DNA of 40,494 nt from a virus. The DNA is taken from IMG/VR virus record IMGVR_UViG_3300045988_104813. The stretch is one strand, 5' to 3'. The position numbers were made by a program, and so were the translations under genes. Shown piece after piece: positions 28,337 through 34,598 of the stretch; the first letter of the stretch is position 1, and every line of letters starts with the position of its first letter. The notes below the pieces were generated by a model. That model was not told the origin of the DNA. It saw only the letters and a list, made by a program, of their open reading frames with translations, and did not search any database.

Positions 28337-30006
28337 CATTTATGCGATTGCACGACAGATATACAGACAGTTTTGAAACAGGTGAGGTACTGAACAACGC
28401 ATATAACGTCAAAGAAACAAGGATATTGAACGATACGGGAAGTATTGAATTTGACTATCCATACGACGAAAAGGCACGTCTAATCAGTCAAAATATGTTG
28501 GTTAGCGTAAACGGTCATATATACGAAATCAGCCGAACAACACGAAATATGAACGGTGCGGATTCACTGCACGTTTACGGTACACCACATTTTGTGTATG
28601 AGGCGCAGAAAGCGTTTATACCGACAATCGGCGACCATATCGGTAAAAGTTCAAGATATGTTCTAAAACAAGCGATTGATATTATATCAGATTTTAAAAA
28701 GACGGTCGGGGAAAGGTGCATTTTTCACATTATGACAGATGCAGAGCTGACCGCCAAAGGAATGAAGTGGGTTGCAGATGATGAACTGCTGATTGATTTT
28801 TTCTCTACCGACAAAACGAATTTGTGGGACGTTATAAAAACGATAATAGAAAATTTGGGGCGTGGCGAGATATTCCACGAAACAACTATCGACAGTAATA
28901 ACAACATTGTATGTAACATTGCCATTGTTGAACGTATCGGCACAGATAACGGCGTCAGACTGCGTTTAGAAAAAAATATGCAAAGCATATCAATAGAACG
29001 CAACGTAAGCGATATGATAACGCGTTTATGGGCGTTCGGAAGTGACGATTTAACAGTCAGCAGTGTAAACGGCGGCAAAGCATATATAGACAGTCCAAAC
29101 ATTGAAAAATACGGAGTACAAGAGGGGTACAAGGACTATAGCGATTATACATCAGCGGCCAAACTGTACCGTAATGCAAAGTGGGAATTTGATGAGGATA
29201 ACGAGGATAGAATTGACGTACCACAGTTGACAATCAGCGGTAAATTGATTGACCTATCAAAATTAGCTGAATACGGCGACGCTGAAAAGTTGGAGATAGG
29301 CGACACGGTCCACGTCTTTGACCTTGATGGGACGGAGTATGTGCAACGAGTAACAGAATACCAAGCGTATCCGTTAGAGCCGAAAGAATCTAATATATCA
29401 ATCGGGCATATCAGACGTGATTTTTTTATCGAACTATGGCAAACGTCAGAAAAAACAAAGAAATTTGCAAAGTGGCAGACCGCAAATAACAGCGTAAACA
29501 TTCGCAAAGTGCAAGGAACGGTGAACACAGATCGAAACGAAGTGCAGTCGGATAATAACCTGCTTAAAATAGTGGGTGATTTGCTGACGATAAGCGACGG
29601 CGCTAATATCCGTATACGGCTCGGAAATTATAAAGGTGAGTTTGTTTTTATTATTTACGACAAAAAGAACAATCAAGCCGTGTACCTCAATGAAAACGGC
29701 GAGGCGGTATTCAGCGGAAGCGTTGACACTAAAAAGGACGCAACTATCGGAAGCTGTCTGTATTTACAGACAACGGAGCTTGTGGGAAATATACAACAGC
29801 CTGCAATACGTTTTAAAAATAAAGACGGCGAGGTTATATTTGAAATATCAGTGACAGAGGACGGTTGCTTGCGCTTTATTCCGATATTGGGGACAGGTAA
29901 GGTTTTGCTTGGAAATACCGAAGCGGCAAGTAAAGATGATATTCAAAAGTTGCAGAGTGACATCAAGGGTTTAGCAGATAGAATTTCAGCGTTGGAAAAA
30001 GCATAA
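28324..30006 (+). CDS. Tail-associated lysin / tail endopeptidase-like protein (Tal) with C-terminal coiled coil
   Basis: Position after Dit; start moved to ATG 28324 (GGAGGA RBS). Confidence 0.6.
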   Translation: MGQITFMRLHDRYTDSFETGEVLNNAYNVKETRILNDTGSIEFDYPYDEKARLISQNMLVSVNGHIYEISRTTRNMNGADSLHVYGTPHFVYEAQKAFIPTIGDHIGKSSRYVLKQAIDIISDFKKTVGERCIFHIMTDAELTAKGMKWVADDELLIDFFSTDKTNLWDVIKTIIENLGRGEIFHETTIDSNNNIVCNIAIVERIGTDNGVRLRLEKNMQSISIERNVSDMITRLWAFGSDDLTVSSVNGGKAYIDSPNIEKYGVQEGYKDYSDYTSAAKLYRNAKWEFDEDNEDRIDVPQLTISGKLIDLSKLAEYGDAEKLEIGDTVHVFDLDGTEYVQRVTEYQAYPLEPKESNISIGHIRRDFFIELWQTSEKTKKFAKWQTANNSVNIRKVQGTVNTDRNEVQSDNNLLKIVGDLLTISDGANIRIRLGNYKGEFVFIIYDKKNNQAVYLNENGEAVFSGSVDTKKDATIGSCLYLQTTELVGNIQQPAIRFKNKDGEVIFEISVTEDGCLRFIPILGTGKVLLGNTEAASKDDIQKLQSDIKGLADRISALEKA

Positions 30007-30011
30007 AAATA

Positions 30012-30035
30012 ATAGGTGCCGTTTTGGACACCTAT
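30012..30035. terminator. Bidirectional hairpin terminator ATAGGTGCC-gttttg-GACACCTAT between convergent Tal (+) and the moron (-)
   Basis: Inverted repeat; A-tract on + side, T-tract on - side. Confidence 0.6.
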
Positions 30036-30559
30036 TGTCTTAATTTATTTATTGCTGGAACGACGGATTTTATATAGTAATCATAAGGAATGTACGTTCC
30101 GTTTATGATAGGTACATCAGTAAGTACATCTGTATAATCTTTCCTATTGTAAAAATCAGTTCCGGCAAATGTATAAGAACCTAATCCAATATCATCAAGC
30201 ATTTCTTCGATACTTGAGATAAATATATAATTAACTCCGTCAACCTCATGAGGTGCTAATTCCGGCAATGGTTCAGCCGCGCTAATTGTCGGCACGTCTG
30301 TCGGTTCGGGGCAAACAGAAATAGTATTAACCGTAATAGTGTTATCACTGAAACCGACATTAAAACCGCCGACAGCGTCGGCAACGTCACGTAATTTGAA
30401 ATATGTATTATCGTTGATGTTGTAACCCTCTATCGCCGTTTCTGTACCGTTTACGGCAACAGGGAACGGGTTAGCCGTTACGGCATATTCTACGGCGAAA
30501 CCTGTCGCGGTCGCACAGATTATACCGCCTGTTATAAAACCTAATATAAATTTTTTCAT
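30032..30559 (-). CDS. Moron: secreted/membrane-anchored protein with signal/TM segment and a copper-amine-oxidase-N-terminal-like (Cu_amine_oxidN1) domain
   Basis: Only sizeable minus-strand gene in the structural region; start moved to MKKF (AAGGAGG RBS); AVNGTETAIEGYNINDNTYFKLRDVADAVGGFNVGFSDNTITV matches the stalk-domain pattern; low GC. Confidence 0.6.
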   Translation of the reverse strand: MKKFILGFITGGIICATATGFAVEYAVTANPFPVAVNGTETAIEGYNINDNTYFKLRDVADAVGGFNVGFSDNTITVNTISVCPEPTDVPTISAAEPLPELAPHEVDGVNYIFISSIEEMLDDIGLGSYTFAGTDFYNRKDYTDVLTDVPIINGTYIPYDYYIKSVVPAINKLRQ

Positions 30560-30584
30560 AGCTTGTAGCCTCCTTTTTGTTTTT

Positions 30585-30628
30585 AATATATAATAATTTG
30601 TGCATTTTGTCAATATTTGTTTGACAAT
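30585..30628 (-). promoter_or_regulatory. Minus-strand promoter for the moron (TTGACA, 17 nt, TATATT) overlapped by the palindrome TTGTCAA-tatttgt-TTGACAA
   Basis: Read on the reverse complement; 7-bp perfect arms. Confidence 0.4.
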
Positions 30629-30682
30629 ACAGCATTAATATGGTAATATAAAAATAAAAAGAAAAAAATTCTAAAAAACTAT

Positions 30683-30711
30683 TGCTTTTTTTAAGCAGAT
30701 AGAATATAATA
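30683..30711 (+). promoter_or_regulatory. Promoter for the Abi-like gene: TTGCTT, 17 nt, TATAAT
   Basis: Read directly. Confidence 0.45.
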
Positions 30712-30726
30712 TAACGCATGAGATAG

Positions 30727-30786
30727 GCCTCAACACGCCTCTTCGCAATGCGAATGCGTACCATGTTGAGGCTGCTTTTTTATTTT
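30727..30786 (+). terminator. Leader hairpin with T-tract between promoter and Abi start (outer stem GCCTCAACA/TGTTGAGGC, inner palindrome TTCGCA-A-TGCGAA, then TGCTTTTTTATTTT); possible attenuator
   Basis: Read directly. Confidence 0.4.
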
Positions 30787-30797
30787 AGGAGTATTGT

Positions 30798-31655
30798 ATG
30801 GAAATAAAAAGACCGACTACAATAGAAGAACAAATAAAAATTTTAGGTGGTAGAAAGTTAGTTATTGAAGATGTTGAATTCGCTCAAAATGTACTTTTAT
30901 CGGTAAATTATTATAATTTTACTGGTTATTTACATACATATAAAAATGCAGATGACAATTACGAAAACATTTCTTTTAATCAAGCGTATAGAATATATCT
31001 ATGCGATAGACGTATTAGGTCTACTATATTATACGCGATAGAGAGTATTGAACATAATTTAAAGACGAAAATCGCTTATGTAATAGCGATGAATACCTGT
31101 GCAACATCTTACTTAAACAAAGATATTTTCGTGGATGAAGAAGAACACCAAAAACTACTACAAAAATTTGGACAAGCAATAAATAGAAATAGTAAAATAC
31201 CATTCGTAAAACATCACATAAAGAAATATGACAGAAGATTTCCTATTTGGGTAGCTATTGAAATTTTTACCTTAGGAATGGTGTGGAATTGTTATAAAAA
31301 TTTAAAGACACCTCTAAAAAAGAAGATTGCATCAAAATTTAATATAGGTTCCGTTTATTTGGAGAGCTGGATTGAATGTATATCTTATTTACGAAATGTA
31401 TGCGCACACTATATGAGGTTATATAGATTTAAGGTACAGAAGACACCTAAAAAGAGTAAAAAACATAGTATGAATAATATATCTCACTGCATATATGACA
31501 TTATAAATGTAATGCGTTTTTTAATGCCAAGTAAAGATGAATGGAATAATTACATAATTTCTAATATTGCTCAAATCTTTGAAGAATATAAAGATGTTGT
31601 AAGTCCTGAAGATTATGGTTTTCCAAAGGACTGGGAAAAAACTTTAACATTATAA
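30798..31655 (+). CDS. Abortive-infection protein, Abi_2 (AbiD/AbiF-like) family
   Basis: N-terminal TIEEQIKILGGRKL…SVNYYNFTGY and C-terminal WVAIEIFTLG…YLRNVCAH motifs typical of Abi_2; strongly AT-rich; flanked by own promoter and terminators. Confidence 0.75.
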   Translation: MEIKRPTTIEEQIKILGGRKLVIEDVEFAQNVLLSVNYYNFTGYLHTYKNADDNYENISFNQAYRIYLCDRRIRSTILYAIESIEHNLKTKIAYVIAMNTCATSYLNKDIFVDEEEHQKLLQKFGQAINRNSKIPFVKHHIKKYDRRFPIWVAIEIFTLGMVWNCYKNLKTPLKKKIASKFNIGSVYLESWIECISYLRNVCAHYMRLYRFKVQKTPKKSKKHSMNNISHCIYDIINVMRFLMPSKDEWNNYIISNIAQIFEEYKDVVSPEDYGFPKDWEKTLTL

Positions 31656-31665
31656 TATTGAAATT

Positions 31666-31691
31666 AAGCACGTCTTACGGCGTGCTTTTTT
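31666..31691 (+). terminator. Rho-independent terminator AAGCACG-tcttacgg-CGTGCTTTTTT (copy 1 of a duplicated unit)
   Basis: Read directly. Confidence 0.75.
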
Positions 31692-31737
31692 CGTACCCAA
31701 AATGAGGTGACACAATGTACAGACGAATACCACCATA

Positions 31738-31760
31738 GCACGCTTACGGCGTGTTTTTTT
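31738..31760 (+). terminator. Near-identical second terminator AGCACG-cttacgg-CGTGTTTTTTT (copy 2, about 72 bp downstream)
   Basis: Read directly. Confidence 0.7.
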
Positions 31761-31805
31761 AATACCAAAATCCCAATCAATTATGATTTAGAAAGGACGG
31801 ATAAA

Positions 31806-34598
31806 ATGAAATTAAATTTTAATTTTAGCGGAAAAACGCTGTTAAAGGATTGGTGGCCGATAGTGAAAGAAAATTTCAAGACCATTGAAACAGACCACAA
31901 CACACTGTCCGACAAATTGGACACAGAAATCACGCAACGCACCAACGCTGATGTAGGGTTGGCAGACAAAATCACCGCCGAAACCAAAGCGAGGGAAAGT
32001 GCGGATAGTTCGTTAAGCAGTCGCATAAACAACGAAGTGACAATACGACAGGCGGCGGATAATGAACTGCAACGAAATATCAGCGGCGAAGCAACCGACA
32101 GGGAAAATGCGGACAATACGTTACAAGGGAATATTGACGCAGAGGCGAAAAACAGGCGGGTCGGTGACAGTGAATTGCGAGAACAAATTTTAACCGAACA
32201 GACAAACAGAACAAACGCCGACGATATACTGAACGGCGGAAAAGCCGATAAAACCGATTTATATGGCAAGGAAACAGATGTTGTCCATAAAATAACGCAC
32301 AGTTTGAAAAAGTCTGATTTTATTATAAACATAAATCAAGGAAACGGAAACGGCACAATAACGATAAACAGTTTGGCGGTGCAGACTAAAATCTTTTTGG
32401 ACGGGAATGCAGCGATACAAACAGAGCCGATTTCAGCTTCTTTTTCTGCGGAAAAGGGCGAAGAAGGCGAAAAGTGGGTTAATTTGCTCTATGACCAATA
32501 TACAGGTAAACTCGGACTGGAAGTTACAGAGCAACCAGAGGCGGGAAATGTTGCAAAGATAGCAGTAACATATATGAAAGCCGAAGTTGCCGAAATGTAT
32601 GCGGGTCAACTGAAATTTGACGGTATCAAAGATTTGAGAGCATTAAAAACAGACAATAAAAATTCGTTTTTGGAGGCGGTCAATGAAATTGCAACAAAAC
32701 TGACAACTGAAATTTCGGACAGAGAGGACGCAGAACATTCACTGACTGAAAAAATCAGTACTGAAATTTCGGACCGACAGGCGGCGGACAACGAGTTGAA
32801 AGCGAAAATATCAGAGATAAATACTGAACTGACAACGGATAACCTGTTTTATGATTTATCTAAATACGTCAACAGTGACAACAAATTAGTCACTGACGAC
32901 AGCGGTGTACAGTATTTGTCATATTCGGGTTCGTTTGAAAACGGAACGTATTTGTATCACAATTTTGTTGTTGATAATTTCCGCCGTAAACCGAAAACGG
33001 AAACCGCATTAGAATTGACATTCAATGTGGCGTCACGTCATATAGCTGTGGACGATTGTGACAGTGGCGGTTTGAATAAAGGTGAAACAGACGTATTGAT
33101 TACATACACTGATACAACAACAGAAACATTCGGACAGTCATATTACACAGCAACCGATACCGGTGATAAAACAATCACGATAAACGGCACATCAGAAACG
33201 TATAAAACAACAAAATTTAAAATTGAAATCCCTGTAAAAAAAGAAATTAAATCAATTTCATTCCGAATTGTATCGGATAACTATTATACAAACGGTGACC
33301 CGACGGGAAATGCGTGTAAACAGAAAACATTAATACAGTCGGCTGTTTGTTATGATGATGAATGTGTGGCGGTATTGCGTGATGATATTAACACGAATAC
33401 ATCAAAAATTACTGCCAATACAACAAAAATCACCGAAATTGATAAAACAGTTACAGACATTTCAAAAAATCAAATATTTGTCGTGTGTGACGGCGACCAC
33501 GACGAATTAAAATTACAGGCGGCGATAGATAGCGCGCCGTATAAAAGTATTATATATCCTGTAGGTGAATTGTGCATTATTACAAATGCAAATATGAAGT
33601 CGGGTTACGGAATGACGGGAACTAATAACGGTGTGGCAATTCCGTTGAAAGGCGGAATGACGTTAGACGGTTCAATGTGCAATACAATTATGTTCAAAAA
33701 CACAAATCCTGTCGCAAAACAATATGTTTTTCATCTGCCGGAAGGCGCTAAAATACAAAATGTAAAATTTACAGAGGACACGGACACAGTAACGGCGGAC
33801 ACAGTAAATCCGACAGTATTATCAGCGCAAAGTAGTTCACAGATAATATCCTGTACATTCTACGATATATTCAGTACACATCAATTCGGTGTATCAACGT
33901 TTGAAATGAGCAACGTTCTGTTTTTGAACAACGTCATAGATACGTTCGCAGGTGCACCGGCAAATAATTTGACATACGAAATAAAAATCGCAGGCAATTC
34001 GTTTGTTATGGGTAACAAATTTTTGAATTTCACGCAAAAAGAACAATCGTTAGGATATATGCTACAGGCGTCAACCGTTATATTTGTAAACAATTATATG
34101 TCCGGTTTTACAAATTGCAGTATTGATATAGGCAAAAAAATAGTAGGCAATATATTTAAAACGTTTACTGATTGCAGTATCGATATAAATGGCGAAATTT
34201 CGGACAATGAATTTGCAGCAATTACACAGAACACAAAAACACCGTTTATATACACCAAGGGGATTACATTAATCAGCGGAAACAGAATGCCTGTTATAAA
34301 AATTAATTCCGAATATATCGATTTTATCGAATGCGGAAATTATGCCGTTATATGCGGAAATTATATGCACATTTCCGCAGGCCCTACGTCGGGACAGTGT
34401 AATCTAATATCAGCCAGCAGTCAGACGCTGATAGCAGATAATATATTTAGGACAACGGCGTCTGTAACGGCAAATGCAGATTTTTCAATTATATACAGCG
34501 ACGGTAAAACAGTAGTCAAAAATAACGTGACAAACGCAACATCAATCGGAACGTTCAGCGATACGTGCGTTGTCGATGGAAATGTGACAGGGTGGTGA
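31806..34598 (+). CDS. Receptor-binding protein / tail fibre: N-terminal coiled-coil heptad-like repeats, C-terminal right-handed beta-helix (pectate-lyase-like, possible depolymerase)
   Basis: Start moved to ATG 31806 (GAAAGGA RBS); repeated D/E-x-x-R-x-x-AD-x-L segments; C-terminal NNV/GN-rich repeats typical of parallel beta-helix. Confidence 0.65.
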   Translation: MKLNFNFSGKTLLKDWWPIVKENFKTIETDHNTLSDKLDTEITQRTNADVGLADKITAETKARESADSSLSSRINNEVTIRQAADNELQRNISGEATDRENADNTLQGNIDAEAKNRRVGDSELREQILTEQTNRTNADDILNGGKADKTDLYGKETDVVHKITHSLKKSDFIININQGNGNGTITINSLAVQTKIFLDGNAAIQTEPISASFSAEKGEEGEKWVNLLYDQYTGKLGLEVTEQPEAGNVAKIAVTYMKAEVAEMYAGQLKFDGIKDLRALKTDNKNSFLEAVNEIATKLTTEISDREDAEHSLTEKISTEISDRQAADNELKAKISEINTELTTDNLFYDLSKYVNSDNKLVTDDSGVQYLSYSGSFENGTYLYHNFVVDNFRRKPKTETALELTFNVASRHIAVDDCDSGGLNKGETDVLITYTDTTTETFGQSYYTATDTGDKTITINGTSETYKTTKFKIEIPVKKEIKSISFRIVSDNYYTNGDPTGNACKQKTLIQSAVCYDDECVAVLRDDINTNTSKITANTTKITEIDKTVTDISKNQIFVVCDGDHDELKLQAAIDSAPYKSIIYPVGELCIITNANMKSGYGMTGTNNGVAIPLKGGMTLDGSMCNTIMFKNTNPVAKQYVFHLPEGAKIQNVKFTEDTDTVTADTVNPTVLSAQSSSQIISCTFYDIFSTHQFGVSTFEMSNVLFLNNVIDTFAGAPANNLTYEIKIAGNSFVMGNKFLNFTQKEQSLGYMLQASTVIFVNNYMSGFTNCSIDIGKKIVGNIFKTFTDCSIDINGEISDNEFAAITQNTKTPFIYTKGITLISGNRMPVIKINSEYIDFIECGNYAVICGNYMHISAGPTSGQCNLISASSQTLIADNIFRTTASVTANADFSIIYSDGKTVVKNNVTNATSIGTFSDTCVVDGNVTGW

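Follow-up and report, generated by a model that had tools for sequence, protein, structure and literature searches.

A predicted two-component module of an AbiF-type ribonuclease and an abiF RNA in an exchangeable cargo site of a temperate gut phage

The abiF locus

The stretch of viral DNA analyzed here (IMG/VR record IMGVR_UViG_3300045988_104813; 40,494 nt, referred to as the window) carries on its + strand an abortive-infection gene, abiF, that is preceded by a structured RNA leader. A first-pass annotation, made from the sequence alone, had described the gene as phage-borne and the leader as an attenuator; the comparative data presented below assign the leader to the abiF RNA family. The window encodes terminase, portal, major head protein, tape measure, tail endopeptidase, endolysin, integrase and a CI-like repressor, a temperate siphovirus-like gene set that bears out the phage origin. 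The features of the locus are as follows.

30682–30710, +: predicted sigma-A type promoter of the abiF RNA and abiF (sequence; position kept in homologous loci)
30682–30687 and 30705–30710, +: −35 box TTGCTT and −10 box TATAAT of this promoter, 17-nt spacer (sequence)
Near A30718, +: predicted transcription start (from the predicted promoter)
30718–30786, +: abiF RNA (AbiFr/RCd22-like), predicted antitoxin RNA and intrinsic terminator (RF03085, covariance model R1, covariation, fold)
30726–30734 paired with 30765–30773, +: stem P1 (covariation)
30735, +: unpaired A
30736–30738 paired with 30756–30758, +: stem P2
30744–30746 paired with 30750–30752, +: optional extra 3-bp hairpin P3 (CGC-AAU-GCG), following the loop CUCUU
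30759–30764, +: invariant 3′ bulge UACCAU
30776–30786, +: U-tract (U6AU4, UUUUUUAUUUU), with GC between P1 and the tract
30787–30791, +: ribosome-binding site of abiF, AGGAG (sequence)
30798–31655, +: abiF open reading frame (ORF), 285 aa, ATG at 30798 and stop codon at 31653–31655; predicted HEPN ribonuclease (RNase) toxin
31392–31409, +: HEPN catalytic motif R199-N-V-C-A-H204 (R-phi-xxx-H; homologue alignment)
31666–31693, +: terminator 1 (hairpin 31666–31687; 9-bp stem, 4-nt loop, U6), predicted to end the abiF transcript

AbiF is a HEPN ribonuclease of the Abi_2 family

The abiF product matched the Pfam family Abi_2 (PF07751) with 170.7 bits (cut-off 25.6; E 5.3e-50), the PADLOC AbiD profile over residues 1–284 of 285 (E 1.4e-86) and the PHROG family 'abortive infection resistance protein' (E 5.8e-62). 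These profile matches confirm the earlier assignment to Abi_2 (AbiD/AbiF), and the peptides on which it had been based, SVNYYNFTGY, WVAIEIFTLG and YLRNVCAH, all occur in the ORF. The best annotated phage match was the AbiF protein of phiC2/CD2301 (AbiF_Cd), with 34% identity over the full length. Homologues were collected at 64% down to 28% identity; in the resulting protein alignment (A1) residues R199, N200, A203 and H204 were invariant across 49 homologues.

The closest relative of solved structure by sequence, and the only one, was PbAbiF (8vz6_A; E 1.5e-20), whose catalytic residues R210 and H215 align with R199 and H204 in the match to the PDB sequence. An AlphaFold2 monomer model of the abiF product reached a predicted local distance difference test (pLDDT) score of 96.5 and a predicted template modelling (pTM) score of 0.91. 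A Foldseek search of the PDB with this model retrieved the same entry, 'PbAbiF dimer bound to ncRNA' (E 3.6e-12; template modelling scores 0.83/0.80), and no second significant match, the next having an E value above 1. The window protein and PbAbiF thus have the same fold with aligned catalytic arginine and histidine, yet only 23% identity in the structural alignment. Judged from profile, motif and predicted fold, the window gene is a real AbiF-type abortive-infection HEPN RNase of a temperate gut phage, and by analogy with 8VZ6 and the models of AbiF_Cd the protein probably acts as a dimer. Two minus-strand ORFs, 30471–30764 and 31024–31203, overlap the promoter region and abiF, respectively, and were regarded as spurious.

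As had been noted in the first-pass annotation, the gene is very AT-rich: the guanine-cytosine (GC) content of the ORF is 0.279, compared with a window mean of 0.39 (standard deviation 0.039 over 858-nt segments). Only 0.1% of 858-nt segments are as low, the lowest value in the window is at 30802, and the cassette segment 30583–31714 has a GC content of 0.285.

The predicted promoter lies at a conserved position

The TTGCTT-17-TATAAT sequence pointed out earlier is present upstream of the leader. Such a match means little by itself, because promoter-like sites are not enriched in the AT-rich abiF region (13 found against 11.2 expected). Comparison of 63 distinct homologous loci proved more informative: a −10-like box ends at most 13 nt 5′ of the start of the RNA model in 56 of them, and many of these boxes have a perfect TTGACA at a distance of 17 nt. 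The promoter of the first-pass annotation therefore sits at a conserved position.

A second promoter-like site, TTGACA-17-TGgTAATAT (30621–30649, +), was found by consensus scan only and is without comparative support. Its −35 box and that of a minus-strand promoter together make up an inverted repeat, TTGTCAA-N6-TTGACAA (30608–30627), which could be an operator or merely reflect the two back-to-back promoters.

The leader hairpin is an abiF RNA motif

A hairpin followed by a T-tract lies between the predicted promoter and the abiF start codon, at 30726–30786 (first annotated at 30727–30786), so that a predicted terminator indeed separates promoter and gene. The hairpin 30726–30773 with its U-tract has a minimum free energy (MFE) of −22 to −25 kcal/mol (z −4.5 to −5.1) and is predicted to fold into a single dominant structure; none of 200 shuffled sequences folded as stably.

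In a permissive search the full model of Rfam family RF03085 (abiF RNA), positions 1–37, aligned to 30729–30771 on the + strand; at gathering thresholds, comparison of the whole window with Rfam gave no match. Because the RF03085 score is sub-threshold, membership of the RNA family rests on a model of our own and on comparative data. The window RNA has in common with RF03085 a hairpin of two stems whose internal loop is asymmetric, and a sense-strand location directly 5′ of abiF; it differs in a P1 rich in A/U and G-U pairs and in an apical loop with the extra 3-bp hairpin. At the position of P3 other members have a 7-nt loop or a longer apical hairpin.

Homologous loci were drawn from species-representative genomes and viral contigs by a profile-based scan. 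An exact-protein pattern scan of GTDB representative genomes had found no relative of the window AbiF, megablast of 29800–32300 against GenBank phages gave no match, and a scan of viral contigs with the window protein alone returned only 100%-identical copies, which are of no use for covariation. Directly 5′ of the gene, RF03085 scored above threshold (40–49 bits) in eight relatives with 36–41% protein identity (loci L028, L029, L030, L031, L033, L035, L038 and L039); the seven closest relatives (L021–L027) are also below the threshold. All upstream regions of the relatives contain the same element, in which a stem of changing sequence surrounds ACGCCUCUU, a loop and GCGUACCA; behind it come a T-run, the ribosome-binding site and the start of the gene.

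An alignment of 31 distinct RNA examples, window included (A2), showed a core, CGC.UC and GCG.ACCA, that is invariant (to a degree inflated by the choice of seed, see below) and an outer stem that varies yet stays paired. The six inner P1 pairs are paired in 94–100% of the sequences, as many as four pair types occur at a single position, and seven of the nine P1 pairs change on both sides. Overall, 89% of cells are paired, as opposed to 27–50% when the partners are slid. The covariation score was 0.373 compared with 0.175 in shuffles, and none of 500 shuffles reached 0.373. Covariation also holds on 66 distinct sequences, within the limits that alignment A3 is fitted to the model and that P2 is nearly invariant.

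The covariance model built from A2 (R1) scored the window RNA at 59.1 bits (E 3.8e-13), the match ending 20 nt before the abiF ATG. With filters off, R1 found this single strong match and no second copy in the window. Across related loci R1 gave a + strand match directly 5′ of the gene in about 89 of 95; these matches end 4–83 nt 5′ of the gene, and about 200 nt in two loci. One alignment and one model thereby join the window RNA, through a chain of intermediates, to loci that pass the Rfam threshold. The relatives above that threshold share the single-motif architecture with T-tract. Among 63 distinct loci, 61 have five or more T within the first 8 nt behind P1, and related loci keep their elements in the order promoter, motif, T-tract, ribosome-binding site, gene. 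The unpaired CGCCUCU and GCGUACCA are kept across loci with only 30–60% protein identity, while the stem covaries.

Judged by sequence comparison and covariation, the leader hairpin is an abiF RNA motif with a predicted built-in terminator, not a generic attenuator; its role as an RNA antitoxin is proposed by analogy with characterized systems. The earlier view of the leader as a control element thus stands, and its description as an uncharacterised attenuator has to be replaced, since the motif is that of RF03085, which acts as antitoxin and cis-regulator (PMC12373285; PMC12737573; PMC13064643).

The 5′ tail of the RNA (30718–30726) occurs in two conserved forms, AACAGR and AUGAKAYAG, the latter in the window and the relatives closest to it. 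In the window, the RNA reads AUG AGA UAG at its predicted 5′ end, which is not conserved as an ORF: a leaderless mini-ORF (M-R-stop) at the conserved 5′ AUGAGAUAG was rejected, as the stop is missing from relatives with AUGAUACAG and the AUG from those with AACAG. Because the reading frame is not kept among relatives, the conservation of AUGAGAUAG is at the RNA level, and the tail is probably an RNA-level or protein-contact feature. The possibility that the hairpin serves as minus-strand terminator of the divergent gene was likewise discarded; the hairpin is not followed by a T-run on the minus strand, and transcription of the gene leads away from it.

Several homologous loci contain further RNA genes. 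In L061 (2265–2500) two abiF-motif units each stand behind their own TTGACA-17-TATAxT promoter; the second precedes abiF, and the first, which is without a clear T-tract and has no gene after it, would constitute an additional antitoxin RNA gene of its own. Two other orphan RNAs of Rfam neighbour abiF homologues: a drum RNA (85.7 bits) about 90 nt 5′ of the abiF motif in Hominicoprocola fusiformis (L036, 2218–2330), and a skipping-rope RNA (52.8 bits) 3′ of the gene in a Faecalibacterium contig (L031, 5092–5191). Transfer RNA (tRNA) genes immediately upstream in several loci suggest integration hotspots.

Comparison with characterized systems

The closest characterized counterpart is AbiF_Cd of the C. 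difficile prophages phi027, phiC2 and CD2301, which is preceded by the non-coding RNA (ncRNA) RCd22 (Saunier et al. 2025, PMC12373285). RCd22 has a SigA promoter, two abiF motifs and a separate Rho-independent terminator; its short terminated form dominates and read-through yields the abiF mRNA (PMC12373285). AbiF_Cd is toxic in C. difficile and in E. coli, its toxicity requires R202 and H207 of the RNQCAH motif, the counterparts of R199 and H204 in the window protein, and RCd22 acts both in cis, where it reduces abiF expression, and in trans, where it binds the protein directly and thereby neutralises it (PMC12373285). The window locus resembles this system in encoding a prophage-borne Abi_2/HEPN protein with the RNxxAH motif, 34% identical over its full length, and in uniting a SigA-type promoter, an abiF-motif RNA, a terminator, a ribosome-binding site and abiF in one transcription unit. 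The RNA cores differ (AAGCUUCU...GCUCAAAUA in RCd22, ACGCCUCU...GCGUACCAU in the window), and from their sequences the two RNAs are different subtypes, linked only through the Rfam family. The window gene lies between tail genes, not in or after the lysis module as in the characterized examples.

PbAbiF of Prevotellaceae (8VZ6; Zilberzwige-Tal et al. 2025) forms a dimer of HEPN RNase subunits (PMC12373285; PMC12737573). One copy of the ncRNA AbiFr, encoded upstream, is bound per monomer, and in the cryo-electron microscopy structure bulge nucleotides block the RNase (PMC12737573). One AbiFr per PbAbiF monomer fits a single-motif RNA such as that of the window. As the work of Zilberzwige-Tal et al. 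is described in PMC12373285, PMC13064643 and PMC12737573, AbiF is also the proposed evolutionary ancestor of Cas13.

The AbiD/F group is described as a protein with an upstream RNA and as toxic if cloned in the absence of the native upstream region; its lactococcal members AbiD, AbiD1 and AbiF were discovered via their phage-resistance phenotype (PMC13064643). The lactococcal proteins belong to the same Pfam and PADLOC family as the window protein; they are plasmid-borne, whereas the window gene is prophage-borne.

By analogy, the arrangement also recalls classical type III toxin-antitoxin systems (ToxIN, AbiQ, CptIN, TenpIN), in which antitoxin RNA, terminator and toxin RNase form one transcription unit and the protein is inhibited directly by the RNA. 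The 3′ arm of P1 and the U-tract (30765–30786) lie between RNA and ribosome-binding site, as does the type III terminator (predicted). The toxin folds are unlike, HEPN here as opposed to the ToxN/AbiQ fold, and classical type III antitoxins consist of tandem 34–50-nt repeats processed by the toxin, whereas the window has a single hairpin; a repeat search and the R1 scan found no tandem repeats 5′ of abiF.

The abiF cassette occupies an exchangeable cargo site

Fifty related viral contigs were gathered via the tail endopeptidase and compared one segment at a time. They varied in what lies between the minus-strand signal-peptide gene (30032–30559) and the tail-fibre gene (31806), an interval that spans 30560–31805 in the window.

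abiF cassette: 11 loci
Nothing (57-nt filler, then terminator 2 only): L171 (flanks 99% identical), L148, L150, L158, L160 and L174
HicA/HicB pair: L140 (7451–8069) and others
78-aa membrane protein: L149 (7477–7713) and L153
About 4 kb of other genes (Cu_amine_oxidN1, helix-turn-helix, Bro-N): L163 and others

The interval between the tail genes is thus a hotspot of exchangeable cargo. Comparison with empty-site and other-cargo relatives delimited the following segments.

30583–31659: cargo-specific segment (promoters, abiF RNA, ORF)
31660–31714: terminator 1 segment, common to other cargos
31737–31762, +: terminator 2 (hairpin 31737–31755; 8-bp stem, 3-nt loop, U7)

Relative to empty sites the left joint is fuzzy (30583–30595) and the right joint falls at 31714/31715, between the two terminators. 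Terminator 2 is ancestral, because the empty-site relatives have it and the right joint lies 5′ of it. Terminator 1 is on the inserted side and common to all cargo types (HicAB, membrane protein, 4-kb insert), all non-empty versions having the same 66-nt end. The promoter of the minus-strand gene lies within the swapped segment and is exchanged along with it.

The cassette was 99.9–100% identical in phages whose tail endopeptidases are only about 76% identical, and has therefore moved recently as a unit. The exact AbiF protein was found in 3519 blocks of public assemblies, on contigs of up to >1 Mb, always in the same tail-module context with bacterial genes at the prophage end; given its presence in thousands of assemblies, these prophages commonly carry AbiF as an accessory gene for defence or addiction. 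These comparisons support the proposal that the gene was acquired horizontally, as an AT-rich cassette under its own promoter.

Both + strand terminators reported to follow the gene were recovered (hairpins 31666–31687 and 31737–31755). Terminator 1 has an MFE of −15.8 kcal/mol (z −5.0) and terminator 2, just 5′ of the tail-fibre gene (ATG 31806), of −9.4 kcal/mol (z −3.0); terminator-like sites are enriched, with 8 found against 1.6 expected. The 72-bp duplication that had been claimed for them is smaller: the repeated module spans 28 nt, or about 38 nt if one gap is allowed, and its copies are 86% identical and lie 69 nt apart. The interpretation of the duplication as the insertion joint is partly right, in that the right joint does fall between the terminators, but terminator 1 also follows other cargos.

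Proposed mechanism and alternatives

We consider it probable, at roughly 80%, that 30682–31693 is a two-component AbiF defence and type III-like toxin-antitoxin module carried as a phage accessory cassette. The data above establish what the protein and the RNA are, how the RNA folds (from covariation), that the order of the elements is conserved and that the cassette is mobile. For termination and read-through, RNA–protein binding, toxicity and the trigger, the proposed mechanism would follow RCd22/AbiF_Cd and PbAbiF/AbiFr. In the lysogen, the sigma-A type promoter (30682–30710) would constitutively start an RNA about 8 nt 5′ of the abiF motif. P1 and the U-tract would act as intrinsic terminator, most transcripts ending at about 30780–30786 to give a free RNA of about 65 nt in excess. 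A minority of transcripts would read through, AbiF being translated from the AGGAG/ATG at 30798 and the transcript ending at terminator 1. AbiF would be a HEPN RNase, probably dimeric, with catalytic R199 and H204, and the abundant RNA would block its active site via the unpaired CGCCUCU and GCGUACCA, probably with one RNA per monomer, so that the lysogen survives. Upon infection by another phage or failure of the RNA supply, free AbiF would cleave cellular RNA, leading to growth arrest and abortion of the infection. The module could equally be an addiction module for the prophage.

A number of points weigh against this interpretation. The window RNA scores only 19.9 bits (E 1.7) with RF03085, below the gathering cut-off of 37. 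The seed of A2 and R1 was picked by a regular expression for the core, which inflates core invariance and leaves the stem covariation and later model matches unaffected. R1 scores RCd22 at only 13.4 bits. The window P1 is interrupted by an internal loop and has a 2-nt spacer before the U-tract of the predicted terminator. RCd22 has two motifs and a separate terminator, whereas in the window one motif supplies the terminator through its own P1 and U-tract; because of this fusion, details of stoichiometry and regulation may differ from RCd22. Finally, anti-phage activity of the prophage-encoded AbiF_Cd could not be shown (PMC12373285).

The alternative that survives best is that the module is mainly an addiction or stabilisation system against prophage loss, with defence not its main role. 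The type III-like logic of a labile RNA antitoxin and a stable toxin would suit such a function, the HicAB toxin-antitoxin pair is an alternative cargo of the same hotspot, and the authors of the C. difficile study, who could not show anti-phage activity, raise prophage maintenance themselves (PMC12373285). On the other hand, lactococcal AbiD, AbiD1 and AbiF were found by their phage-resistance phenotype (PMC13064643), and addiction is compatible with defence; nothing in the sequence separates the two roles. As the main function, addiction seems to us rather unlikely.

We regard it as quite improbable that the hairpin is a cis-acting attenuator or insulator only, which limits abiF and shields it from late phage read-through and has no antitoxin role in trans. 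The position of hairpin and U-tract between promoter and ribosome-binding site, and the T-tract kept in 61 of 63 loci, would be expected of such an element, and RCd22 also works in cis through premature termination (PMC12373285). A plain terminator, however, needs no invariant unpaired bases such as CGCCUCU and GCGUACCA, and the RNAs of homologous systems neutralise their AbiF in trans by binding it. An attenuator of the classical two-hairpin kind is unlikely as well: with only about 8 nt between the predicted start and the 5′ arm of P1, an alternative, antiterminator hairpin would have no room; no dedicated search for alternative pairings was made, and a start at the 30621–30649 site would add 60 nt 5′ of P1.

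A riboswitch-like element that is remodelled by a ligand, infection or stress signal to allow read-through into abiF, in line with the speculation of Saunier et al. that RCd22 motifs sense phage or stress stimuli (PMC12373285) and with the resemblance of the highly conserved unpaired nucleotides to a binding pocket, is very improbable, given that the conserved bulge contacts the protein in the PbAbiF complex (PMC12737573) and this already explains the conservation, that the motif is tightly tied to one protein family only, and that no expression platform or alternative pairing was noted, albeit without a dedicated search for alternative pairings.

Within the preferred two-component reading, antitoxin fold and terminator are one hairpin (the P1/U-tract fusion, 61 of 63 loci). 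This gave rise to the tentative idea, still on the unlikely side, that AbiF bound to the nascent RNA could set the termination of its own leader, a protein-dependent autogenous attenuation. If true, loss or titration of the RNA–protein complex during infection would both free the RNase and open read-through, a feed-forward switch that is not described for RCd22, in which motifs and terminator are separate.

Neighbouring genes and the mini-ORF

The features flanking the cassette are listed below.

30032–30613, −: divergent neighbour, 175 aa, signal- or lipoprotein-like N-terminus, ATG at 30559
30613–30585, −: strong predicted promoter of the divergent gene, TTGACA-17-TATATT
30036–30011, −: terminator of the divergent gene
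31715–31738, +: mini-ORF ATG TAC AGA CGA ATA CCA CCA TAG (MYRRIPP*), preceded by the Shine-Dalgarno sequence GAGGTGA

The divergent 175-aa protein had no Pfam, PHROG or PADLOC match. Among relatives its first ~78 codons are 95–97% conserved and the C-terminal half is replaced; L163 has a different protein at this site, with a Cu_amine_oxidN1 domain.

The stop codon of the mini-ORF overlaps the 5′ arm of terminator 2. The mini-ORF occurs in all 21 sequence variants as MYRRIPP* or MYTGIPP*, with an ATG or TTG start, and in empty-site phages its Shine-Dalgarno sequence is AAAGGAG, from unrelated upstream sequence. Judged from these variants, it is part of the phage backbone, not of the abiF cassette. 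The Pro-Pro-stop ending suggests ribosome stalling that could mask terminator 2; mini-ORF and terminator 2 would then be a candidate translation-coupled attenuator for late tail-fibre expression.

Late transcripts running from the tail endopeptidase to the tail fibre (30007–31805) would cross the antisense gene and three + strand terminators, namely that of the abiF RNA, terminator 1 and terminator 2, which implies antitermination or a separate promoter; alternatively, late transcription could restart at a weak promoter-like site at 31759–31787. Late transcription across the cassette also raises the question of the RNA:toxin ratio in the phage's own lytic cycle.

Significance

The leader that had been taken for an uncharacterised attenuator is re-read here as part of a recognised two-component system of AbiF and an RNA antitoxin. 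The window locus is a clear further example of the system described in 2025, not a novel control element, and its differences from the characterized AbiF systems are variations within a known family. Since the RF03085 threshold misses the window RNA and those of L021–L027, annotation pipelines will call such loci single-gene "AbiD"; the clade-specific model R1 recovers the RNA in about 89 of 95 loci. By analogy with the characterized systems, toxicity is to be expected if 30798–31655 is cloned without 30682–30786. The cargo hotspot, bounded by conserved terminators, offers a convenient natural system for cassette exchange in prophages. The main interest of the locus lies in the Rfam blind spot that it exposes, in the prevalence of the module in prophages and in the possible protein-dependent attenuation arising from the fusion of antitoxin fold and terminator.

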